Source of the DNA: a virus
Lineage: Duplodnaviria; Heunggongvirae; Uroviricota; Caudoviricetes
DNA: 52,473 bases
Strand: one strand, 5' to 3'
IMG/VR virus record: IMGVR_UViG_2541047750_000003
Location: 1 to 52,473 of that record
Positions 2,556 through 19,248 of the stretch are shown here, in pieces. Position numbers and translations under genes: made by a program. Under the pieces are notes generated by a model. It saw nothing but the letters and a program-made list of their open reading frames with translations. It was not told the origin of the DNA and did not search any database. The stretch's first letter is position 1. Each line of letters starts with the position of its first letter.

Positions 2556-3977
2556 TTAAAAAGATGCGTTGCTCTGGCTGTTTCGTGGGGAGAATCGACT
2601 TGCCGCCGGACGTTGTTGCATTGACTGAATGCAAGCGGACGCCGCGCGGGCCTGGTCGCATGGGATGATGTTGCCGTTATCGTCAAACCGCTGGTAAACA
2701 GTCCCCGTTTTCCCGTGACGGTTTTTTGAAACGATGATCTCCATATATTCGCGGGCAACCGATTGTTCGTTGTAGTAGCCGTCGCGGTAGACCATGATGA
2801 TCCGGTCTGCGTCCTGTTCAAGATTACCGGAATCACGCAGATCAGAATTGTTCGGGCGCTTGTTCGGTCGTTCCTCAACGCGGCGAGATAATTGCGCCAG
2901 TGCCGCCACTGGCACGCGCAACTCTTTCGCCATCATTTTCAATGACCGCGACAATTGCCCTACGGCGAGATCATGACGTTCGGCCTTAGCCAGTTTCATT
3001 AACCCGATATAGTCAATCATCACCATCCCCAGGTTATGATGGTCCTGTTTCATCCGTTCGACGGTGGCGCGTATTTCCTCGACCGTTAACTGCGATGCGT
3101 CAACAATCCACACATCGAGATCGGCAAGGGCACTCATTCCCTGGGCGACGTGCGCCCAACCTTCGTCATCCAGTTTTACCGGATTACGTAGGCAATCCGT
3201 TGATAAGTTCCCAGCGCCAGCGATAGCACGTTCAGTCATCTGATCGAGCGACATTTCAAGCGTGAACAGCAAAACGCCGACCCGCTGACCTTCGCCTCCA
3301 GGGTATGGGCGTTCAGCCGCCGCGCGGGCAATTGCCAACGCCAACGCCGATTTACCAGACCCTGGGCGTCCGGCGATAAGCACCAGATCAGTAGCGTTAA
3401 TGCCGCCTAACATTTCGTCGAGTGGGTCAATCCCTGTTTTGATGTTGTCAGAGTTCACGCCACACTCCATGCGTTTACTTAACACTTCCGTGTATTCCTG
3501 GACCGCATCGCGCAACAGCACCGGGATAATTTGATCTTTTGTTACCTTTAATTTTGAATACCGGGAATCAAAATCTTTCATCGTCTCCCTGACGACTTCA
3601 AGCGTCCCTGTTTCCAGCTTGTAGCGAATGTCTTCCATTAGTTCCAGCATTTGCCGACGCTGGTGTTCTTCCTGTAGTAGTTGCGCATATCCTTTCAGGT
3701 TGGCAGCAGAAGGGCACGATCGTGCCGTTTGCATTAGCGGTACAAAGTTTTCATTGCCAATCTCATCGCCAACCAATAACGCGTCGATAAGATTTCTGTT
3801 TCTGGCTTGCGCCCGGATAACTTCAAACGCACGTTTATAAAGCGGGATCGTGAACACTTCAGGATCAAGTGTGGCGAGAACATCTTGCGCGTTAGGAGTA
3901 AGGCCACCTAACAGTAGCCCGCCGATAACTGACGCTTCACGTTCCTGCCGTAGTGAGTTTATTTGCTCAGTTACCAT
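2556..3977 (-). CDS. DnaB-like replicative DNA helicase
   Basis: 473 aa; Walker A GRPGSGKSALALAIA, DnaB-type N-terminal domain, RecA-like core; GGAGG RBS upstream of the ATG. Confidence 0.85.
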   Translation of the reverse strand: MVTEQINSLRQEREASVIGGLLLGGLTPNAQDVLATLDPEVFTIPLYKRAFEVIRAQARNRNLIDALLVGDEIGNENFVPLMQTARSCPSAANLKGYAQLLQEEHQRRQMLELMEDIRYKLETGTLEVVRETMKDFDSRYSKLKVTKDQIIPVLLRDAVQEYTEVLSKRMECGVNSDNIKTGIDPLDEMLGGINATDLVLIAGRPGSGKSALALAIARAAAERPYPGGEGQRVGVLLFTLEMSLDQMTERAIAGAGNLSTDCLRNPVKLDDEGWAHVAQGMSALADLDVWIVDASQLTVEEIRATVERMKQDHHNLGMVMIDYIGLMKLAKAERHDLAVGQLSRSLKMMAKELRVPVAALAQLSRRVEERPNKRPNNSDLRDSGNLEQDADRIIMVYRDGYYNEQSVAREYMEIIVSKNRHGKTGTVYQRFDDNGNIIPCDQARAASACIQSMQQRPAASRFSPRNSQSNASF

Positions 3978-3995
3978 TATGTTATTGCCTCCGGT

Positions 3996-5114
3996 TTACA
4001 AAATGGAATATTCAGAGTAATAAACAAAGCGCCCAATTTCCCCATGATCCGGGCTGTAAATAATCACCGCTGCCAGACGCCGCGACCGCCAGCCGCCATT
4101 AGTTGAATATGCGTCTTTGCCAGCTAATGTGCCGTGGTGCTCAACTATTCCAAGTGATGTTTCAACAACTGATTGATGGTGCAGATGTCCAGTGTGAGCG
4201 TAAACAGCCACAGACCTCCCGAAATCCTCCCGCCAGTCAGATACGCAAGCCGACAATAAATTTTCCGGCTTTTTGATAGTGTGCCCGTGGTGGTAAGCAA
4301 GGAATGTTTTGCCGTACTGTGTGTGGTGGACGATAGCAGGGGACACATCAACAGTTACGCGCGGTTCATCTTCGTAAAAAGCCGCCAGCGCCGCACGTAG
4401 CCAAATCATGCCAGACTGATCGTGATTGCCTGATAGTACCTGGATTTCAATATCCTTATGATTTAACAACATCTTTCCTACCGCCCGACGTACCGCTCGG
4501 ATCGCTACATAGACAAGTTTTGCATAGCGTGAATCGCAATCCAGTACGTGATTGCTTGATGGCGTAACTGGCAACAGCCCGTCAGTGTGAAGAACATCCC
4601 CACCGAGAAGCAAAACAGCTTTTTCAGACATCGGCGCAGCGCCCACCGCGTAGTCAAAGAATTCATTCAACACGCGTTCAGCGATCCCAGTGTCGTAGCT
4701 CTCGCCGCATTCAGCTTTATGAGCAAGCGCCCCGATATGCAGATCAAATACCGGATAAAGGGCCAGGCTTTTTTGAAAATCAATTTCAGGCACTGGCACG
4801 GCCTCCGCGCGTGGTATTTCTTCCGTGAATGCGTCGCGGGCAGCTTCCATTAGCCTTTCCATTTCATCACGGTCACGGGCAGTTTTAATCCAGCGCATGA
4901 CCGTATTACCAGCCTTATCGACAAGAACAGATTCACCAGTAACGCCAAAACCAGGCGCGCGACGCGTTGATATTAAACCGCGTTTCGCCAGTTTTGCGCC
5001 TAGCCGCTCGACGTTGCGTTTTGACATGCCATATTTTTCAGCGATCTGCTTGTACGTTAAACCGTTGTTATATTCAGCGATCAATTGCTCATCGCTGATT
5101 TTTCTTTGCGACAT
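3996..5114 (-). CDS. HTH domain fused to calcineurin-like metallophosphoesterase (372 aa)
   Basis: N-terminal HTH (LTYKQIAEKYGMSKRNVERL); ordered phosphoesterase motifs DLHIG, GGDVLH, GNHD, GHLHH; GAGGAA RBS; sits where a helicase loader or O/P-type protein would be. Confidence 0.6.
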   Translation of the reverse strand: MSQRKISDEQLIAEYNNGLTYKQIAEKYGMSKRNVERLGAKLAKRGLISTRRAPGFGVTGESVLVDKAGNTVMRWIKTARDRDEMERLMEAARDAFTEEIPRAEAVPVPEIDFQKSLALYPVFDLHIGALAHKAECGESYDTGIAERVLNEFFDYAVGAAPMSEKAVLLLGGDVLHTDGLLPVTPSSNHVLDCDSRYAKLVYVAIRAVRRAVGKMLLNHKDIEIQVLSGNHDQSGMIWLRAALAAFYEDEPRVTVDVSPAIVHHTQYGKTFLAYHHGHTIKKPENLLSACVSDWREDFGRSVAVYAHTGHLHHQSVVETSLGIVEHHGTLAGKDAYSTNGGWRSRRLAAVIIYSPDHGEIGRFVYYSEYSIL

Positions 5115-5147
5115 AATGTTATTTCCTCATGTTTACATTTTGTATAT

Positions 5148-6071
5148 TTATTGACAGCAAACAATCTCTTTATATGTTTCTTCTACCATGTCGAATACTT
5201 CCGGCCTGTAATAAAAAAATTCAGTGCTACCATCAAACTTAACAGGGAAGTTTATTTTATAGTCACTGAAAGCATCGTGCATTTTGCTTTCTATTTCCTG
5301 CATAATCTCAGTAGGCCCATTCCATGTTTTAACTACCTGTAAATCAGTCAGCCTTACACCTGCCTTACGAGCACTTTTAAATACTCTGTTCCTCCTTTCG
5401 TTCTCTTTTACGCTTACACCAATTTTCATTTGTGTAGGCACTTCAAGATCATCAACCATGATGTAAAGTTTTCCGTTGTAGTGTGATAAAAACCCGTATT
5501 TAGCGCATTTCGGGCAACCGCGCCCGCTCTTAATGTCTCTAGGTTTAGCCGACCACTCATGATCACAAACCTTGCAGCGGCATAATACTTTTGTACTGTT
5601 ATTAACTATTTCAACCAGCACTTCAATATCAGGATTAACCTTAGCAATAGCCGATATTTGTTCTTCATGCGATATTTTTTTGCCTTGCGCTCGTTTTAGC
5701 ACCGCACATTTCTGGCAACCGCTCCCGATCTTAAGGCTTTTAGGTGTAGAATACCACTCATGATCACAAACCTTGCAGCGGCATAATACTTTTATTTTGT
5801 CGCCGGTAATTTCCCCAAGCACTTCAATATCAGGATTAACCTTAGCAATAGCCGATATTTGTTCTTCATGCGATAACTTCATATTCCCAGCGCATTTCTG
5901 GCAACCACGTCCATATTTAATATTGCTAGGTGTAGCCGACCATTCATGGTTACAAACTTTGCAGCGACATAATACTTTTGTACTGTTATTAACAATTTCC
6001 CCTAACACTTCAACATCAGGATTAACTTTCGCGATAGCTGCAACTTGTTCTTCATGTGTTAACTTGCGCAT
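5148..6071 (-). CDS. protein with three tandem zinc-ribbon-like repeats and a C-terminal T5orf172/GIY-YIG-like domain (307 aa)
   Basis: Three ~65-aa repeats each with CRCKVC...GCQKCA (C-x-C-x2-C ... C-x2-C); C-terminal KLYIMVDD...KIG...EFFYY segment resembles T5orf172; AAGGAG RBS. Confidence 0.55.
   Translation of the reverse strand: MRKLTHEEQVAAIAKVNPDVEVLGEIVNNSTKVLCRCKVCNHEWSATPSNIKYGRGCQKCAGNMKLSHEEQISAIAKVNPDIEVLGEITGDKIKVLCRCKVCDHEWYSTPKSLKIGSGCQKCAVLKRAQGKKISHEEQISAIAKVNPDIEVLVEIVNNSTKVLCRCKVCDHEWSAKPRDIKSGRGCPKCAKYGFLSHYNGKLYIMVDDLEVPTQMKIGVSVKENERRNRVFKSARKAGVRLTDLQVVKTWNGPTEIMQEIESKMHDAFSDYKINFPVKFDGSTEFFYYRPEVFDMVEETYKEIVCCQ
5480..6070. repeat. three ~195-bp tandem direct repeats inside the CDS
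   Basis: Long near-identical blocks, e.g. cacttcaatatcaggattaaccttagcaatagccgatatttgttcttcatgcgata at ~5619 and ~5820, with a diverged third copy ~5940-6060. Confidence 0.7.
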
Positions 6072-6445: not shown

Positions 6446-7498
6446 TCAAAGAACGCCAGCGCGCGTATCACGTAGCGTTTTTGGTTTAAGCAGGAAATCA
6501 AGTGTCGCGGTGAAGCCATCGCCGAAGTAAAAATCTGAAGCCGTGTTTTTGAACGTTTCGAAGTAGGCGACAAAGCCGTTAATGCTTTTGTCTTTCAGGT
6601 AGTCAGTGAACGCATAGATCTTGCGTTCAAGATCCCGATCCAGTTCGGCAGGTGGTAACAGGCCGTCAAACGTGCTGTTAAATGCTTCCACCACGTCGGC
6701 AGCGTTTACAGTGGCTGACAGTTTGCGCCATTGTTCAGCATCAGTCAGATACCCATCAAATTTAGTTACCCGGCAAATGTTGATAGGCTTAGGTACTCCA
6801 CCACGGCTACGCCATTGGGTTAAAGCCCACTCAATTACTAACGTGATCTCATTCTCCGTATACGCTTTACGTGTTTTTGTTTCTGTCAGTAGTTCTACGA
6901 ATGGCTTAGCATCACGACATTTGCATCCTGCCTTGTCGTTGTAGAAGGCAAGGCAACGCAATGCCGCTTCGTTTACGCCATCCTGATTGACCATTTTTTG
7001 TTCATTTTCGACAATACACGAAGTGTATATATCTTTTTCTCTTTCTTTTTCTACTTCTAATTCTAATTCATGACCCTTTCCTGACCCGGTCATGACCCTA
7101 TCATGACCTTTTTGTGTTGGATTGATTAACTTTTCTAATTTTAATTGCTCCTTCGCTGTGTTTATGGCGGCCCTGTAAGCGCTTTTAGAAGTCATTGATT
7201 GGTCCAGCCTTTTCAATAACTTTAAACAAGTTATGTGGCCTTGAGAACATTCAAACAAACCAATTTCGATGAAGTATTTCATCATTTCTTCTATACGTTT
7301 TTCAGTAGATCCGACGTTTCGAGCAATGATTCTCGCGTCATGTCGTAGGTCAAAAGTCAGATTGTGCTGATCTACGTCATAAGTTATTAGTTCGAGGCAA
7401 TACCAATAAAGCCCGTACCCTTCCAGGCCATAATCTAACAAAACGTTTTGAAGTTTTTCATCGCGGTTCGCATCGCTGTCATGCTTAAACCACTTCAT
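6446..7498 (-). CDS. replication initiator / replisome-organizer-like protein (350 aa)
   Basis: N-terminus MKWFKHDSDANRDEKL and C-terminal FYFGDGF...LLKPKTL region resemble conserved phage replication-protein termini as recalled; GGAGGG RBS; first large gene of the replication operon. Confidence 0.5.
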   Translation of the reverse strand: MKWFKHDSDANRDEKLQNVLLDYGLEGYGLYWYCLELITYDVDQHNLTFDLRHDARIIARNVGSTEKRIEEMMKYFIEIGLFECSQGHITCLKLLKRLDQSMTSKSAYRAAINTAKEQLKLEKLINPTQKGHDRVMTGSGKGHELELEVEKEREKDIYTSCIVENEQKMVNQDGVNEAALRCLAFYNDKAGCKCRDAKPFVELLTETKTRKAYTENEITLVIEWALTQWRSRGGVPKPINICRVTKFDGYLTDAEQWRKLSATVNAADVVEAFNSTFDGLLPPAELDRDLERKIYAFTDYLKDKSINGFVAYFETFKNTASDFYFGDGFTATLDFLLKPKTLRDTRAGVL

Positions 7499-7501
7499 AG
7501 A

Positions 7502-7759
7502 TCATCCCTCCGGCAACATCACTACATAGACATCACTGAATGCATCAAGACGACAAACAAATCCTTTATCCATTAACGCGGCGAAGGCATCATGTACCGT
7601 ATGAACAGGAAGTTCACACATTGCGGCTACTTCTTTGCGTGATGCATCATGTACCCGTCCTTTGTTATCTGCCTTTTCAGCCAGAGCCATTAAGACAAGT
7701 TTTTGAATCGGGCTATTAAGTTTTACGTTCCATGCTTTACTAATCATGTTTATACTCAT
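7502..7759 (-). CDS. Cro-position HTH DNA-binding protein (85 aa)
   Basis: Start refined to the ATG after the AGGAG RBS (track ORF 7502..7837); divergent from cI; KLVLMALAEKADNKG...HDASRKEVAAMCELPVHTV looks like a winged HTH. Confidence 0.5.
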   Translation of the reverse strand: MSINMISKAWNVKLNSPIQKLVLMALAEKADNKGRVHDASRKEVAAMCELPVHTVHDAFAALMDKGFVCRLDAFSDVYVVMLPEG

Positions 7760-8064
7760 CGCATTTTCTCCTATGGTTAGAGTGAACGCGCGGGCGGGCA
7801 TCCCATTAGCATTAGATAGCAGTGACTGACCGCTCAACAGATCCCGCCGTTGCGTGATATTTGTTTTTCGCTTCGCAGCGACACCGGATTTTTAAAGAGC
7901 ATAAGGTAAGTGCCTTTTTGTGCCTTCCGTTATCTTTTTCCTTGCGTCTTTGCAAGTATGGCCTTACCTTGTCTGCAAGTTTACAAAATGGAATTTTAAA
8001 ATCAAGGCTTAAAATACACGTTTTGTGACTTGCATCAAACTTTTTGAGGTTATAGGGTAGCGAC
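7760..8064. promoter_or_regulatory. divergent immunity control region between cI and the minus-strand early operon
   Basis: 305-nt gap between divergent genes; contains TTTACAAAATGGA (7980-7992) and inverted AAGGTAAG/CTTACCTT arms; promoters and operators not resolved. Confidence 0.45.
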
Positions 8065-8712
8065 ATGAAAACAAAATGGTATGACTTAGCAAAGCAGCTC
8101 ATGCGGGCGCAGGGCATGAGCCAGGATTCGCTCGCGGATCGTATGGGGATAACTAAAGGCGGCCTGTCACACTGGCTGAACGGTCGCCGAGAGCCAAATC
8201 TTGAAGATATTGCGCGGATTATGCGCGAGCTTGGTCGTCGGCAGTTTACTGTTACACATGATGGCATGGTCATTGATGATTCTGTTTCTAATACACTTCA
8301 GGCCGTGCCGCCGCGTGATTTAGGTAGTTACCCGGTTATTGACTGGAAGGACACAGTAAACAATATGGATGACGCAAGGCGTTCAGCATTACGACACGTT
8401 ACGACTAGCGTTATTTGTTCAGATGACAGTTACTGGCTGGTTGCCAAAGGTGAATCAATGAACGCGCCGCAGGGGTTGAGCATCCCGGCGGGGACGATGA
8501 TACTTGTGGACCCGCACGCGCCAGCTATTGACGGCAAACTGGTTATAGCCCAGCTTGAGGAAGGGCAGATACCGACGTTTAAACAGTTGATTATTGATGG
8601 AGGTCAAAGGCTTTTACGTTCGCTCAATCCGCTGTATCCGCCAATCCCTATGAATCCAGAATCAAAAATTATAGGCGTGGTGGTTGATGCGAAGATCGTA
8701 AACCTGCCATAA
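8065..8712 (+). CDS. cI: cI-type repressor (HTH plus LexA-like S24 peptidase domain)
   Basis: 215 aa; N-terminal HTH (QDSLADRMGITKGGLSHWLNGRR); C-terminal autocleavage domain with Ser in LVAKGESMNAP and Lys in PTFKQL. Confidence 0.85.
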   Translation: MKTKWYDLAKQLMRAQGMSQDSLADRMGITKGGLSHWLNGRREPNLEDIARIMRELGRRQFTVTHDGMVIDDSVSNTLQAVPPRDLGSYPVIDWKDTVNNMDDARRSALRHVTTSVICSDDSYWLVAKGESMNAPQGLSIPAGTMILVDPHAPAIDGKLVIAQLEEGQIPTFKQLIIDGGQRLLRSLNPLYPPIPMNPESKIIGVVVDAKIVNLP

Positions 8713-14199: not shown

Positions 14200-14739
14200 A
14201 TGAAAAATGATTACGGCGGCAGCCATACGCCGAAAGAAATAAAGGACTTATGGCAAACGCCAAAACCCGTTTTTAGAGGAATGGATCGGGAATTCGAGTT
14301 CGTCGCGGATGTGGCGGCAAACAAGGAAAACGCATTAATCCCGAGATATATAACCGAAGAAATGGACACGCTCCATTATCCGTGGGGAGCGGTGGCGATG
14401 CCTGGTGAGTATGTCTGGATGAATCCGCCATATTCTAATCCGGGACCATTCGTTGATAAGGCGGCGCTTGAACATCAACGAAATCACATTGGCTGTGTAA
14501 TGCTATTGCCCGCTGACATTTCTGTTAGCTGGTTTATGAACGGCGTGGAGACGGCAAACGAATGCCGATTAATCACGCGCGGGCGGCTGGCGTTTATCAA
14601 TGCTGCAACAGGGAAACCAGTAAGCGGGAACAATAAGGGGAGCTTGTTCTTGATCTGGCATCCACGATGCAGACATGAATGTATTTTCACGCAGATAACA
14701 CGTAAAGAGCTATACGCGAGAGGCGCAAATAATGACTAA
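14200..14739 (+). CDS. phage Dam-like N6-adenine DNA methyltransferase
   Basis: 179 aa; catalytic motif WMNPPYS (DPPY/NPPY class); size and layout typical of phage Dam MTases. Confidence 0.6.
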   Translation: MKNDYGGSHTPKEIKDLWQTPKPVFRGMDREFEFVADVAANKENALIPRYITEEMDTLHYPWGAVAMPGEYVWMNPPYSNPGPFVDKAALEHQRNHIGCVMLLPADISVSWFMNGVETANECRLITRGRLAFINAATGKPVSGNNKGSLFLIWHPRCRHECIFTQITRKELYARGANND

Positions 14740-15244: not shown

Positions 15245-15728
15245 CAGGTTATTAGCCTGCGTTTATGTCGCCGTTTTCGTGATTATCAATCTTATTGTTA
15301 ACCATTGCGGCCCGTGGGTGATTCCGATCACCACGGTAGCCGCAGTGTGTGTCAATATGATGATCCGTGACTTTCTGTTATATGACGGCGGCCTGAAATG
15401 GTCGGCTACAACATGCGCCGCCGCTGGCGCAATCACGGTGCTGATAAATTACGACGCCGGAATGGTGGCGATCGCGTCATTCGTCGCGGTTGTTTCCGGT
15501 GCGCTTATTTCTGGCGGCGTTTACCGGGTTCTACCTGGTGATTTCGATTCCAAACGCTGGCCTGCAAATATAGCGTCCGCCATTGGCGATGCGTTAATTT
15601 TTCCCACGCTATCGTTTATGGCATTTATGCCGGAAATATCAGCTATTCAATTCATCTCAAAAATGGCAGCGGTAACGGTGATCACTATCATCATGCGCCG
15701 CTATTTCACGTTTGAGGGTAGAAAATGA
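15225..15728 (+). CDS. multi-pass integral membrane protein (~167 aa)
   Basis: Four to five hydrophobic helices; start uncertain (track ORF 15183..15728); family not assignable by eye. Confidence 0.4.
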   Translation: MERVTIDRLLACVYVAVFVIINLIVNHCGPWVIPITTVAAVCVNMMIRDFLLYDGGLKWSATTCAAAGAITVLINYDAGMVAIASFVAVVSGALISGGVYRVLPGDFDSKRWPANIASAIGDALIFPTLSFMAFMPEISAIQFISKMAAVTVITIIMRRYFTFEGRK

Positions 15729-16489
15729 GCGGGCTTAGAAATTGGGTTATCTGGTCGCTGTACGACGGAAGCGGGTACGCCGTTAAAGATTGGGCGGAAG
15801 CTGGTTATAAATGCTATTGCTTCAACTATGACGGCGCTAATCACGGGGATTATGACGGGGTAAAAATAATTCATCCAAATATTGAATATGTTAACGTATG
15901 GATTGACAGCCATTTCCTGGTAATGTTCTCCCCTGAATTGTCTGTTTATCCAGATCCTGACATTATCTTGGGCTTTCCTCCATGCGACAATCTCGCCGTT
16001 TCAGGCGCTCGCTGGTTCGCTGATAAACGGAAAAAAGACCCTGACTTCCAGGTGAAGGCGGCGCATAACGCAAAACTGGTAGAAAAACTGGCGAATATGC
16101 ATAACGTGCCGTGGATGGTGGAAAATCCGGTGGGCGCACTGTCAACGTTATGGCGTAAACCGGATTTTATCTTCAATCCGTGCGCTTACGGTGGCTACCT
16201 GCCGGAAGATGATAAGCATCCCGCTTTCCCGGAATACATTGCCGACCGCGACGCCTACACGAAGAAAACTTGTATTTGGTGCGGGAATGGATTTAAGCAG
16301 CCGCTATTCCGTCCTGTGCCGATGCCAGATGAATGGGAAGACAGTAAGCAGCACGCGAAGTTAGGCGGAAAATCAAAGCGAACAAAGATGATCCGCTCAC
16401 TAACGCCGCGTGGCTTCGCCCGTGCTGTATTCCTGGCTAACGACCGGGCCATCAATCGTACTACGCTCAACCGCGTTTTGCCGGACTGA
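15725..16489 (+). CDS. short C5-cytosine DNA methyltransferase-like protein (254 aa)
   Basis: Motif I-like SLYDGSGY, motif IV-like GFPPCDNLAVSGAR (compare GFPCQxFSxAG), motif VI-like VENPVGAL. Confidence 0.45.
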   Translation: MSGLRNWVIWSLYDGSGYAVKDWAEAGYKCYCFNYDGANHGDYDGVKIIHPNIEYVNVWIDSHFLVMFSPELSVYPDPDIILGFPPCDNLAVSGARWFADKRKKDPDFQVKAAHNAKLVEKLANMHNVPWMVENPVGALSTLWRKPDFIFNPCAYGGYLPEDDKHPAFPEYIADRDAYTKKTCIWCGNGFKQPLFRPVPMPDEWEDSKQHAKLGGKSKRTKMIRSLTPRGFARAVFLANDRAINRTTLNRVLPD

Positions 16490-16648: not shown

Positions 16649-16825
16649 ATGCCTTTTGATAATTACCAATGGCATGACGACTATGAACGAGAAAGCGTTA
16701 TGCGTGCAATGTGCAATGTATGCAGCACGAAGAAAGGAGGCTGTAACGAGTGCAACGAATGCTTAGAACATTGGCTAAGGGCCGGACACGCCGAAAGGCT
16801 GAACGAAACAGAGAATCAAAAATAA
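16649..16825 (+). CDS. small Cys-rich (zinc-binding-like) protein (58 aa)
   Basis: MPFDNYQWHDDYERESVMRAMCNVCSTKKGGCNECNECLEHW...; AAAGGAGAG RBS; below track cutoff. Confidence 0.45.
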   Translation: MPFDNYQWHDDYERESVMRAMCNVCSTKKGGCNECNECLEHWLRAGHAERLNETENQK

Positions 16826-16839
16826 TCGGGGTGGTTTTT

Positions 16840-17445
16840 ATGCAAAACCCTAAAAAACCCATAAGACGCCGTTGCAAGTGCTGCGGCGTTTTTTTTGAGC
16901 CTAAATATCATAATCAAACGTGGTGCAGCGATGAATGTCTGGAAGAACTGAAGTTTGACCAGCTATGCCGCGACCGTGAAAAGGCTATGAAGGCTATGGA
17001 ACGGAAGAAACGCCGCGATAGCCAGCGGGAAGAACGCAACCGGAAGCGGAAACAGTTAAATCCGCGCAGCTACTGGATCAAGCAAGTTCAAAACGTATTC
17101 AACGCCTATATCCGCGAACGTGACGCGCGCTTGCCGTGTATATCCTGCGGGACTTACTACGGTGAGCAATGCGGGTGGGATGCGGGCCATTACAGGACGG
17201 TTGCCGCCGCAGGACACCTTCGCTTTAACGAGGATAATTGCCATAAACAATGCAGGCACTGCAACCAGACATTAGACGGAAACATAGGAGGGTATCGCCC
17301 GGCGCTAATTCGAAAAATTGGCCTCGCCATGGTGGTAGCTCTGGAGAACAACAACGATACGCATAAATGGACGATTGCAGAATGTAAGGAGCTAATAAAC
17401 ATCTATCAGGCGAAATTGGACGCCTTAAGGAGAAAGGTAGCATGA
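16840..17445 (+). CDS. ninG: NinG/Rap-like recombination protein
   Basis: Start refined from track ORF 16750; RRCKCCGVFF...WCSDEC and CISCG...GHYRTVAAAGHLRFNEDNCHKQCRHCN match the NinG Cys/His pattern. Confidence 0.7.
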   Translation: MQNPKKPIRRRCKCCGVFFEPKYHNQTWCSDECLEELKFDQLCRDREKAMKAMERKKRRDSQREERNRKRKQLNPRSYWIKQVQNVFNAYIRERDARLPCISCGTYYGEQCGWDAGHYRTVAAAGHLRFNEDNCHKQCRHCNQTLDGNIGGYRPALIRKIGLAMVVALENNNDTHKWTIAECKELINIYQAKLDALRRKVA

Positions 17446-18338
17446 ATAATTGGCATGATATATTTGAATACGACAACGGTTTTTTATATTGGAAGGGAAA
17501 GAAAGGAAAGTGTAACGCTGGTGATTTGGCTGGTTGCATCCATAAAAATAGTGGTTATTGGGTTGTTCGTGTTAACGATAAATTACATAAAGTACATAGA
17601 ATTATATGGGAAATGCATAACGGACCAATTCCGAAAGGATGCGAGATAGATCATATTTGGCACAACAGAAATGATAACAGGATAGAAAATTTACGCCTTG
17701 TTACTCATAAGCAAAACGGAAGAAATCAGGCAAAACCAAAAAATAATAAAAGTGGGCAGCCTGGGGTTCATAAACTTTCTAACGGATACTATAGAGCGGA
17801 AATATGTGTTAATGGTAAAAATGTGTATCTTGGTCAGTTTGATAATTTTGAAGATGCAGTGGATGTCAGAAAAAAAGGAGAAAAAAAATATTGTTTCCAT
17901 GAAAACAATGGTGTAAGCAAGGAGATTTTGATGCGTGAATTTGAATTCACGTTACCCTGGGCACCATCGGTTAATTCTTATTACGGCAACAATAAAAGGG
18001 GTAGTAAGTATGTAACAAACAAAGGCAAGGATTTCCAAAAAAAAGTCAAAGAAATAATAGAATCACTAAAACTTGATCTTAATATTGATTTTAATGTTTC
18101 CGTTTATATATATGTAGCGCCACCTACACTACGCCCACACGATATTGATAATTGCTTAAAAGCAATATTCGATAGTCTTACTTACGCTCATTTTTGGGTT
18201 GATGATAGGCAGGTTTTTAGTCTTAAGGTTGTAAAGTGCCATAAAATAAAAAACGGCCAGATATTCGTAAAAGTGAAAGAACATTCAGGGGTGTTACCTG
18301 ATATTAACGAATATATTCAGAATTATTGGGAGGTGTGA
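17442..18338 (+). CDS. HNH endonuclease (with AP2-like segment) fused in frame to RusA-like Holliday junction resolvase
   Basis: N-terminal half: HNH motif EIDHIWHNRNDNRIENLRLVTHKQN plus GVHKLSNGYYRAEICVNGKNVYLGQFDNFEDA; C-terminal half: RusA-like LPWAPSVNSYYG...HDIDNCLKAIFDSL...WVDDRQV; markedly AT-rich N-terminal half. Confidence 0.6.
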   Translation: MNNWHDIFEYDNGFLYWKGKKGKCNAGDLAGCIHKNSGYWVVRVNDKLHKVHRIIWEMHNGPIPKGCEIDHIWHNRNDNRIENLRLVTHKQNGRNQAKPKNNKSGQPGVHKLSNGYYRAEICVNGKNVYLGQFDNFEDAVDVRKKGEKKYCFHENNGVSKEILMREFEFTLPWAPSVNSYYGNNKRGSKYVTNKGKDFQKKVKEIIESLKLDLNIDFNVSVYIYVAPPTLRPHDIDNCLKAIFDSLTYAHFWVDDRQVFSLKVVKCHKIKNGQIFVKVKEHSGVLPDINEYIQNYWEV

Positions 18339-18340
18339 CA

Positions 18341-18526
18341 ATGAAAAATGAAGTTAAAGATCTGCAAATAGATATTCAGCGCGATGAGCATGATTTAGCT
18401 ACAGTCCGACAAATCCAGGCTTTTCATATGCGCGAATTGCTTGCATTGAAAGAGCTTGAGAAAAAGTTAGTCCAGTCTATTTCTGATCGTAAACAACTTA
18501 TTGCTCGTTACGGGGGGGGGGAATAA
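18341..18526 (+). CDS. hypothetical protein (61 aa)
   Basis: Start refined to ATG after GGGAGGTG RBS. Confidence 0.4.
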   Translation: MKNEVKDLQIDIQRDEHDLATVRQIQAFHMRELLALKELEKKLVQSISDRKQLIARYGGGE

Positions 18527-19248
18527 TGAATTTAGAATCCATTCTGAAATTCCACTTTCCCAAATCACCGCGATTATCAGACGAAAGCCGGGGCACATCC
18601 CCGGATGCGCTTAATACGACTGATGCGCTAACCGCTGCGGGTATGGCGCAATCGCGCGTAGAGCTTGGCTATAGTGCTTTTTTAGGGAAGATGGAGCTAT
18701 CGCAAGCCGAAAAACACAGGGCTGTAGTATTGCTTACAGAGCGTTTAAGAGCTATGGCGAAAGATTACGAATATGTGATGGAATTAAATGAAGAACAACG
18801 CAATGATCTTATTATTCTTGTTGCCGTTTTCGCGTTTCGGGATTATTGCCAAAGCGCCGCGACGGAAAAAACTTGTATGGAGTGCGGCGGATATAAATTT
18901 ACGTTTGACGACTACGGAGAAAAACATCTTTGCAAAAAATGCAAGGGGCATGGAAAGGTTCGCAATCATTGTAAACAATGCAAGGGGCGTGGCGAGATAC
19001 CGGATAAAACAGCCAGCGAAGCGGCGGAAATGCCAGTATTCAAAACGTGCCAGCACTGCGGCGGGCGAGGCTACTCGCGTTTCCCTGTAGATCTTGTCCG
19101 GCAGGCGGTTAATCAGCTTGTTTTTCCGGTAAGCCGATCAACATGGTGGAAGAAATACAGGGTTTTCTATGAAGACGCCATTGCTGAATTGTTCAAAGAA
19201 GAGGCGAGGGCTGATAACGAAATTAAACGAGTTACACGGGGTGAATAA
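18526..19248 (+). CDS. zinc-finger protein with four CxxCxGxG repeats (240 aa)
   Basis: CMECGGYK, CKKCKGHG, CKQCKGRG, CQHCGGRG resemble a DnaJ-type Cys-rich domain. Confidence 0.5.
   Translation: MNLESILKFHFPKSPRLSDESRGTSPDALNTTDALTAAGMAQSRVELGYSAFLGKMELSQAEKHRAVVLLTERLRAMAKDYEYVMELNEEQRNDLIILVAVFAFRDYCQSAATEKTCMECGGYKFTFDDYGEKHLCKKCKGHGKVRNHCKQCKGRGEIPDKTASEAAEMPVFKTCQHCGGRGYSRFPVDLVRQAVNQLVFPVSRSTWWKKYRVFYEDAIAELFKEEARADNEIKRVTRGE

Follow-up and report, generated by a model that had tools for sequence, protein, structure and literature searches.

A helix-turn-helix metallophosphoesterase of the PHROG 704 family, a putative nuclease, encoded next to the DnaB helicase of an mEpimmI-type prophage

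The viral sequence IMGVR_UViG_2541047750_000003 (52,473 nucleotides, the whole of which is called the window below) contains, at positions 3996–5114, a gene for a helix-turn-helix (HTH) domain fused to a metallophosphoesterase (MPE), directly upstream of the gene for a DnaB-like helicase. An earlier note on this DNA placed the gene in the position of a helicase loader, considered a phosphoesterase at that position atypical, and proposed either a nuclease or phosphatase coupled to replication or an anti-defence function. The question raised by the locus is whether the protein loads the helicase or acts as an enzyme in its own right, and, in the latter case, on which substrate. Our analysis favours the enzyme. 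With moderate confidence, the gene is taken to encode an active, stand-alone MPE nuclease, tethered by its HTH and acting on DNA in the early, replicative phase of phage growth. The fold, the intact and conserved catalytic centre, the domain of DNA-binding type and the membership of a phage-wide family are directly backed by the comparisons described below. The interpretation given in the earlier note is, as a whole, partly supported.

Architecture and catalytic centre of the HTH-MPE protein

The gene and its parts are the following.

3996–5114, minus strand: HTH-MPE gene, 372 amino acids, from ATG to TAA, the coordinates taking in the stop codon; belongs to PHROG 704
5123–5128, minus strand: ribosome-binding site GAGGAA, 8 nucleotides before the ATG of the MPE gene, read directly in the sequence
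4983–5093, minus strand: N-terminal tri-helical HTH, residues 8–44, resembling sigma-70 region 4, LuxR and MarR
4821–4949, minus strand: beta-hairpin (residues 56–80) and helix (residues 82–98) joining the HTH to the catalytic core; family-specific
4017–4775, minus strand: binuclear metallophosphoesterase core, residues 114–366
4731–4745, minus strand: MPE motif I, DLHIG (D124, H126, G128), from residue 124
4587–4604, minus strand: MPE motif II, GGDVLH (D173, and H176 at +3), from residue 171
4419–4430, minus strand: MPE motif III, GNHD (N230, H231), from residue 229; codons checked in the sequence
4281–4292, minus strand: MPE motif IV, HHGH (H276), from residue 275
4176–4190, minus strand: MPE motif V, GHLHH (H310, H312), from residue 309

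A chance open reading frame (ORF) can be excluded, because the protein matches the PHROG 704 profile ("DNA repair exonuclease") over its full length (residues 4–368 on profile positions 2–387 of 390, with an expectation value, E, of 7.2e-138) and has relatives in 2045 of 50,697 phage records searched by tblastn and in 4372 representative clusters at E ≤ 1e-3. The latter were obtained in an exhaustive HMMER search of a library of 1.84 billion proteins, and 926 of them score at E ≤ 1e-30. This is a real gene, specifying a small domain of DNA-binding type fused to an intact metal-dependent phosphoesterase.

Standard domain libraries return little for the protein itself. Ten Pfam HTH families align with residues 10–59, none of them reaching its cut-off (E 7e-4 to 1e-2), and the Pfam Metallophos models (PF00149 and PF12850) are not matched, even when the C-terminal 274 residues alone are searched at E ≤ 10. 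The NCBIfam scan assigned no family, the PADLOC scan gave no match, and a single-sequence search of the Protein Data Bank (PDB) yielded weak matches to HTH proteins alone, for instance IscR and MarR. Residues 1–55 carry a net charge of +7.

An AlphaFold2 model, built with 42 homologues, has a mean predicted local distance difference test score (pLDDT) of 78.6 and a predicted template modelling score (pTM) of 0.72. At the amino-terminus of the model a three-helix bundle is present (helices 8–16, 21–28 and 32–44), followed by the long beta-hairpin of residues 56–80, the helix of residues 82–98 and an alpha/beta sandwich (residues 114–366), most of which has a pLDDT above 90. The beta-alpha-beta-alpha-beta double-sandwich fold of the MPE superfamily is present in the protein. 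When 99 distant homologues are examined instead of the single protein, both halves become easier to assign: PF00149 is matched by 23 of them (best E 2.7e-5) and PF12850 by 14, while their amino-termini match varied HTH families (LysR, Fis, sigma-70 region 4, GerE and HTH_23) more strongly than the query does, the best being Sigma70_r4_2 at 1.5e-9, with GerE at 2.4e-8. The N-terminal HTH described in the earlier note is thus borne out by the sub-threshold Pfam matches, by the modelled helices and by the stronger matches of the homologues. An N-terminal extension of at least 40 residues is found in 141 of 142 full-length homologues, although a 310-residue homologue from a Campylobacter phage has no HTH. 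Conservation is lowest in the HTH, the type of which differs between homologues, while the catalytic residues are invariant.

Conservation was analysed in an alignment of 143 sequences, one for each cluster at 50% identity, which are each 31–57% identical to the protein from the window. In this alignment, D124, H126, D173, H276 and H312 are conserved in 100% of the sequences, N230 and H231 in 99%, H176 (three residues beyond the motif II aspartate) in 97% and H310 in 95%. The four motifs quoted in the earlier note (DLHIG, GGDVLH, GNHD and GHLHH) are all there and in that order, starting at residues 124, 171, 229 and 309; the list was incomplete in that motif IV, HHGH at residue 275, had been missed. 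A loss of metal ligands among the homologues, which that note had considered, is not seen, the ligands being 95–100% conserved. That all five ordered motifs of the superfamily (DxH, GD, GNH[D/E], H and GHxH) are in place, with ligands conserved to this degree, argues for an enzyme and not a scaffold.

Conservation extends beyond the superfamily motifs. In the hairpin, G69 is conserved in 94% and W75 in 95% of the sequences, and a series of residues peculiar to the family (E135, G137, H176, D178, T184, L191, D192, D194, R196, D334, G341 and R346) is conserved as strongly as the catalytic ones. Many of the family-specific conserved residues fall in three loops, residues 130–139, 178–195 and 334–343, for which the pLDDT is below 50. 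They probably make up a site, for substrate or partner, that is specific to the HTH-MPE family.

Relationship to other metallophosphoesterases and proposed mode of action

A profile made from the MPE part of the protein finds only two kinds of protein in the PDB, Thermotoga maritima Mre11/SbcD (E 0.0095) and a nuclease MPE from Pseudomonas putida (E 0.25). In the alignment with T. maritima Mre11, 'tDlHlGmlaw...GDflHyd' is set against 'SDWHLGVTSW...GDLLHSR', which brings the motifs DxHxG and GDxLH into register, and H176 pairs with the histidine of GDLLH. When the model is compared with the PDB using Foldseek, the best matches are Methanocaldococcus jannaschii Mre11-DNA complexes (E 5e-7). The signature of the Mre11/SbcD nuclease domain, a histidine in motif II (GDxxH) and another in motif III, is present in the form of H176 and H231. 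H176 corresponds to H52 of Pyrococcus furiosus Mre11, a residue implicated in exonuclease activity.

The differences are nevertheless considerable. Only about 190 residues align with T. maritima Mre11/SbcD (PDB entries 2q8u and 3qg5) or Staphylococcus aureus SbcD (7dog), at just 12–17% identity; the C-terminal capping domain is absent, the protein ending at residue 372; and, unlike Mre11/SbcD proteins, it has an HTH at its amino-terminus and an insert specific to its family, VTPxSGHxLDxDSR. Since the capping domain and a nearby gene for Rad50/SbcC are both missing, the protein is not filed as Mre11/SbcD. An SbcC-like gene was not seen in the contexts of the family member in phages T1, Henu8, KL and YD-2008.s or in a Campylobacter phage. 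The possibility that the Campylobacter phage matches are homologues of T4 gp47 (Mre11) with a Rad50 partner was considered and rejected, as no gp46-like gene adjoins them. By sequence comparison, the HTH-MPE proteins form a separate family that most resembles Mre11/SbcD. The P. putida enzyme (6nvo), which is encoded with the helicase Lhr, is much smaller (about 200 amino acids), lacks an HTH, and is a bacterial repair enzyme, not a phage one.

A different sort of calcineurin-like MPE is found downstream of the replication genes in lambda, namely NinI, a serine/threonine protein phosphatase common in lambdoid early-right operons. The HTH-MPE protein is about 150 residues longer than NinI, has an HTH, does not match Pfam Metallophos and lacks the signatures of the phosphoprotein phosphatase (PPP) family, which are GDxHG, GDxVDRG and GNHE: neither GDxHG nor GDxVDRG is present, motif I reading FDLHIG and motif II GGDVLHTDG, with no DRG.

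From these comparisons we infer DNA as the substrate, and likewise the biological role. The enzyme would be a phosphodiesterase with a binuclear metal centre of the Mn2+ type, belonging, within the calcineurin-like MPE superfamily, to the Mre11/SbcD-like nuclease branch. Its gene would be transcribed in the early leftward operon together with those for the initiator and the DnaB helicase, its small N-terminal HTH would keep it on DNA, and there it would hydrolyse phosphodiester bonds. Two roles are plausible. The enzyme may trim intermediates of replication and recombination at their ends or branches, or it may break non-phage DNA down to 5'-deoxynucleoside monophosphates (dNMPs) for salvage, as the A1 protein of phage T5 appears to do. 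The reading best supported is a nuclease coupled to DNA metabolism; the anti-defence role put forward in the earlier note found no support, the PADLOC scan being negative.

Distribution of the family and alternative functions

The phage records matched by tblastn comprise Escherichia, Klebsiella, Salmonella and Vibrio phages of the Drexlerviridae (in T1, the protein ST16), Webervirus, Dhillonvirus and Jerseyvirus, and further Casjensviridae-like Ruegeria phages, Rhizobium phage 16-3 and Campylobacter phages. BFVD contains many uncharacterised viral proteins of like size and fold, some of them from phages of Gram-positive bacteria. A scan of a genome collection with a 10-sequence alignment as query located 70 loci, which with few exceptions belong to Alpha-, Beta- and Gammaproteobacteria; the analysis of neighbouring genes covers 63 bacterial-genome loci. 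The allele of the window itself is present in 35 of 5426 complete Escherichia coli genomes, nearly always annotated as 'hypothetical protein'. In the Drexlerviridae, the gene is persistent, being present in 508 of 522 genomes and lying in every case immediately ahead of the lysis cassette (PMC13164509). The view that a phosphoesterase is atypical does not hold for a family that is a persistent core gene there.

The proteins of the T1 ST16 type have the same architecture of HTH, hairpin and MPE core and the same conserved residues, and the window protein is 56–67% identical to Drexlerviridae members. In T1 ST16-type phages, however, the gene ends the helicase-dam operon before the lysis cassette, or precedes the terminase gene TerS, whereas in the window it lies between the initiator and DnaB genes of a temperate phage. 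Public databases already contain both the exact protein and its family, listed by generic names, and the architecture is typical of the family; what is unusual about the gene in the window is only its lineage-specific placement beside DnaB. The paper on mEpimmI does not discuss the MPE gene, and the MPE-containing proteins in the papers on the Metis and PUA-Cal-HAD defences are host proteins, not members of the PHROG 704 phage family.

The surroundings of the gene vary with the carrier. In T1 and Henu8 it ends the helicase-dam operon, with a terminator and then the lysis genes behind it, and in the Drexlerviridae it stands just before the holin-endolysin-spanin genes. In Dhillonvirus it lies between the lysis genes and TerS, and in Webervirus it is followed by a polynucleotide kinase and a dNMP kinase (PMC13164509). 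A DNA methylase and an HD phosphohydrolase adjoin it in a Ruegeria phage, an HD hydrolase and a serine/threonine phosphatase are nearby in Rhizobium phage 16-3, and in a Campylobacter phage it comes after a DNA ligase and RusA. Among the 63 bacterial-genome loci, the recurrent neighbours are endolysin (11 loci), dNMP kinase (8), NinG (5) and NinB (5), followed by HNH endonuclease, TerL and portal protein (4 each) and HD dNMP phosphatase (3); clustering of the neighbouring genes by BLASTP revealed no single conserved partner at these loci. Apart from the placement at the boundary between early and late genes, the theme common to the neighbourhoods is DNA and nucleotide metabolism.

A precedent for the function comes from phage T5, in which A1, a predicted metallophosphatase, is necessary and sufficient for the degradation of host DNA. 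Its gene is located in the pre-early region, which also contains dmp, encoding an HD-type dNMP phosphatase, and A2, encoding the DNA-binding protein with which A1 works (bioRxiv 10.64898/2026.04.02.716235). T5 A1 carries the full set of MPE motifs. Like the HTH-MPE protein, it is a phage early-gene MPE associated with a DNA-binding function and recurrently linked to an HD dNMP phosphatase; unlike it, A1 is 556 residues long, is restricted to the Demerecviridae and also controls the second step of DNA transfer. The two can be aligned only from motif II to motif III, where both have a stretch of the form 'NHDxxxSxWL', and when the HTH-MPE protein is compared with T5 A2 by hhalign, the probability is about 1%. 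T5 A1 is best regarded as an analogue of the HTH-MPE protein and not as a demonstrated relative.

Several homologues of A1, about 530 residues long and 45–48% identical to the T5 protein, have HTH domains recognised by Pfam at their amino-terminus (HTH_23, HTH_38, HTH_7 or CENP-B_N). The combination of HTH and MPE therefore exists in the A1 family too, though T5 encodes A2 separately.

By analogy with A1, the HTH-MPE protein could be the dedicated nuclease for host-DNA degradation and nucleotide salvage of the T1-like phages, with the HTH replacing A2; this is a specific sub-case of a nuclease tethered to DNA, and we consider it possible but improbable. The T5 pre-early region does combine dmp, A1 and A2, HD dNMP phosphatases and dNMP kinases recur beside PHROG 704 genes, A1-family members with an HTH exist, and the family is near-universal in the Drexlerviridae, with the 508 of 522 genomes mentioned above (PMC13164509). 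Furthermore, Bas12, a T1-like phage, is held back by a defence system whose trigger is N6-methyl-deoxyadenosine monophosphate (m6-dAMP) released by phage-induced degradation of the chromosome (bioRxiv 10.64898/2026.01.15.699771), and T1-like phages must therefore generate such products. On the other hand, temperate phages also carry the gene (that of the window, the mEp021 group and Rhizobium phage 16-3), in which early bulk degradation would be counter-productive; homology with A1 is not demonstrable; only a minority of the 63 loci have genes of nucleotide metabolism as neighbours, as the counts for dNMP kinase and HD dNMP phosphatase show; and no genetic evidence ties T1 ST16 to the breakdown of host DNA. 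Extended to the whole of PHROG 704, the analogy would make the family an unrecognised class of stand-alone phage DNases that does the job of A1 in T1-like and many other siphophages, attacking non-phage DNA, supplying dNMP salvage and so producing the m6-dAMP signal, and that in mEpimmI has been recruited into the replication operon to work with the DnaB replisome, a proposal to which we likewise give a low probability.

Bulk degradation of host DNA fits the virulent carriers, while it fits a temperate phage poorly, because the gene is there in an early operon; for the temperate phage, an activity limited to intermediates of replication or recombination is the more plausible one. An indiscriminate DNase made early would hardly be compatible with lysogeny, and this speaks against a bulk breakdown of host DNA by the phage of the window.

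Other points, too, weigh against the proposed nuclease. The sequence link to Mre11 is borderline (E about 0.01), and comparison by hhalign with A1 is not significant, giving a probability of 20% with the single sequence and 25% with a 30-sequence A1 alignment. No Rad50/SbcC partner gene adjoins the MPE gene, whose neighbours in the window are a zinc-ribbon endonuclease-like gene and DnaB. The three highly conserved loops that probably form the substrate site are modelled with low confidence. Finally, a literature search on the PHROG 704/ST16 family found no functional, biochemical or genetic study of any member.

A phosphoesterase with a substrate other than DNA is somewhat less probable than a host-DNA nuclease of the A1 kind. 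It could be a protein phosphatase, as NinI is, a phosphodiesterase for cyclic or oligo-nucleotides (a counter-defence of the anti-CBASS, anti-Pycsar or anti-Thoeris type) or an enzyme healing 2',3'-cyclic or 3'-phosphate ends, the HTH serving for localisation or autoregulation. The absence of the PPP signatures and the GGDVLH form of motif II argue against the first of these, and for all of them it has to be considered that nucleases are the only relatives in the PDB found at the level of sequence, that a domain of DNA-binding type is present in nearly all members, and that, besides the negative PADLOC scan, no consistent linkage to anti-defence loci was seen.

It is quite unlikely that the protein is mainly a transcription regulator, with an HTH of the sigma-70 region 4 or LuxR type that switches on late genes and an MPE that acts as a sensor or is incidental. 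The position of the gene in virulent phages, at the boundary between early and late genes (before holin-endolysin-spanin in the Drexlerviridae, before TerS in Dhillonvirus), would suit such a regulator, as would the Sigma70_r4_2, GerE, LysR and Fis types among the HTH families matched. In the window, however, a separate late activator is present, a Q-like antiterminator at 18526–19248, and the MPE gene itself is part of the replication operon. The pattern of conservation, with an HTH that varies in sequence and type next to an invariant catalytic centre, also speaks against a regulator, and some homologues, such as the 310-residue Campylobacter phage protein, do without the HTH altogether.

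The replication locus of the mEpimmI lineage and the loader question

The genes surrounding the HTH-MPE gene in the window are the following.

2556–3977, minus strand: DnaB-family replicative helicase, 473 amino acids, P22 gp12-like, downstream of the MPE gene and co-oriented with it (Pfam DnaB_C 1.6e-77, N-terminal domain 7.5e-12; PHROG 19)
3988–3992, minus strand: ribosome-binding site GGAGG of the helicase gene, 3 nucleotides past the MPE stop codon
5148–6071, minus strand: homing-endonuclease-like protein, 307 amino acids, a variable insert upstream of the MPE gene (Pfam DUF4379 three times, CapR and MUG113; PHROG 681, 'endonuclease')
6446–7498, minus strand: Lin1244_N/O-like replication protein, 350 amino acids (Pfam Lin1244_N)
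7502–7837, minus strand: winged-helix (wHTH) 'replication initiation' protein, 111 amino acids, forming with the 350-residue protein the initiator pair at the head of the same leftward operon
8065–8712, divergent from the replication genes: cI-type repressor

The MPE gene is indeed directly upstream of the DnaB-like helicase gene, its stop codon being separated from the start of DnaB (2556–3977) by 18 nucleotides. The helicase is 56% identical to P22 gp12, and the initiator pair (7502–7837 and 6446–7498) corresponds to PHROGs 4617, 428 and 345, the annotation of which is replication initiation. As a prophage or phage, the window belongs to the mEp021/'mEpimmI' group: with mEp044, mEp021 and MagusPhagus it shares 92–98% protein identity in these genes, and a near-identical prophage adjoins dgcM in E. 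coli strain FAH. In 11 of 11 mEpimmI-type loci the MPE gene is upstream of DnaB, either directly or with only an HNH gene between the two, as in mEp021 and the P0113-type prophages, and the gap of 18 nucleotides recurs in both annotated E. coli prophages. The order is kept even where identity of the MPE falls to 77% or 59%, DnaB still being 89–96% identical. The MPE gene directly before DnaB is a fixed feature of the mEp021/mEpimmI lineage and not of the PHROG 704 family.

The placement is what a helicase loader or an obligatory replication accessory would lead one to look for, that is, a protein that binds the origin or the initiator and delivers or activates the phage DnaB, as SPP1 G39P or lambda P do. 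A location in one operon with the genes for initiator and replicative helicase, between the two, is, however, all that the HTH-MPE protein has in common with loaders (lambda P, the DnaC/IstB type and SPP1 G39P). No similarity in sequence or fold exists: in Pfam, PHROGs and NCBIfam neither DnaC/IstB nor lambda P nor any other loader family is matched, a DnaC- or P-type profile being what the earlier note had named as speaking against its own assignment, and the protein lacks a Walker A motif and other AAA+ motifs and has the fold of an MPE. Strict conservation of catalytic residues would not be needed in a pure loader.

Comparison of loci leads in the same direction. In loci of the P22 gp12 type, which encode the nearest relatives of the helicase, the initiator gene gp18 abuts the helicase gene with no gene between them, and a helicase of the type found in the window therefore does not need a gene in the loader slot. 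In the sampled contexts of the family in Drexlerviridae, Dhillonvirus and Jerseyvirus no DnaB-type helicase is seen, the carrier phages numbering about 2000, and among the 63 bacterial-genome loci a DnaB homologue is within 7 kb at two, 4–5 kb away in both. The association with DnaB is thus confined to one phage lineage, and the "helicase-loader position" of the earlier note cannot be upheld. Within that lineage, DnaB remains 95.6% identical while the MPE falls to 59%, with no sign of co-variation; this is a weak argument, since the initiator varies independently too. A loader role for the HTH-MPE protein is unsupported and, as the function of the family, largely refuted, and it is the least probable of the alternatives considered here.

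Some further observations were made on the locus. The protein encoded at 5148–6071 consists of three zinc-ribbon repeats followed by a T5orf172/MUG113 domain. At the DNA level, three direct repeats of 173 nucleotides, with 82–84% identity, each code for one DUF4379/CapR zinc ribbon, and the MUG113 domain is GIY-YIG-like. The insert is absent or replaced in MagusPhagus, mEp044 and LSU61, and is no part of the function of the MPE. The slot between the initiator and MPE genes is hypervariable among related phages: LSU61 has nothing there, MagusPhagus has small ORFs and mEp021 a gene for a 495-residue zinc-ribbon protein, and in others pRha or DNA-binding genes occupy it. This suggests that the slot is a hotspot for homing endonucleases. 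HNH endonuclease genes adjoin the MPE gene repeatedly, upstream in Henu8 and downstream in T1 and a Vibrio phage, and the MPE alleles of mEpimmI prophages are mosaic, with identities of 100, 94, 77 and 59% compared with a nearly constant DnaB. Mosaic alleles next to HNH genes are consistent with allele exchange driven by endonucleases.

The initiator seems to be divided between two proteins, a small wHTH protein (111 residues when the longest ORF is taken, 82–84 residues in the mEp021 and MagusPhagus annotations) and the 350-residue protein. Both are far more variable among related prophages (38–99% identity) than DnaB. Within the gene for the larger protein, positions 7068–7108 contain four tandem copies, spaced by 11 base pairs, of TCATGACC(C), or TCCTGACC, which are partly palindromic; this looks like an iteron-type replication origin inside the initiator gene, as in lambda O.

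Outside the replication region, an ORF of 298 residues (17442–18338, plus strand) is located directly after NinG (16750–17445) and before the Q-like antiterminator. Its N-terminal part is an HNH endonuclease domain (PHROG 99, residues 3–199) and its C-terminal part a RusA-like Holliday-junction resolvase (PHROG 34, residues 156–288), so that it is either a fusion or the product of an HNH insertion into rusA. Two DNA methyltransferase genes, 14200–14739 (PHROG 111) and 15725–16489 (PHROG 757), both on the plus strand, flank a gene whose 170-residue product weakly matches a kinase-like PHROG. Genes for DNA methylases are likewise neighbours of the MPE family member in T1, Webervirus, the Ruegeria phage and mEp021.

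For the window, the outcome is that no new helicase loader has been found, and a fitting annotation of the gene would be 'HTH domain-containing metallophosphoesterase (PHROG 704), putative nuclease'. For the family, the implications are wider. PHROG 704 is among the most widespread phage genes lacking a tested function, and is carried by many therapeutic and laboratory-contaminant phages. An intact Mre11-like centre, a DNA-binding domain and neighbourhoods that shift between replication, lysis, packaging and nucleotide-kinase genes together make a DNase tethered to DNA a testable hypothesis. If members of the family were the nuclease behind the host DNA breakdown of T1-type phages, they would be the source of the dNMP signals sensed by defences of the Metis and PUA-Cal-HAD type.

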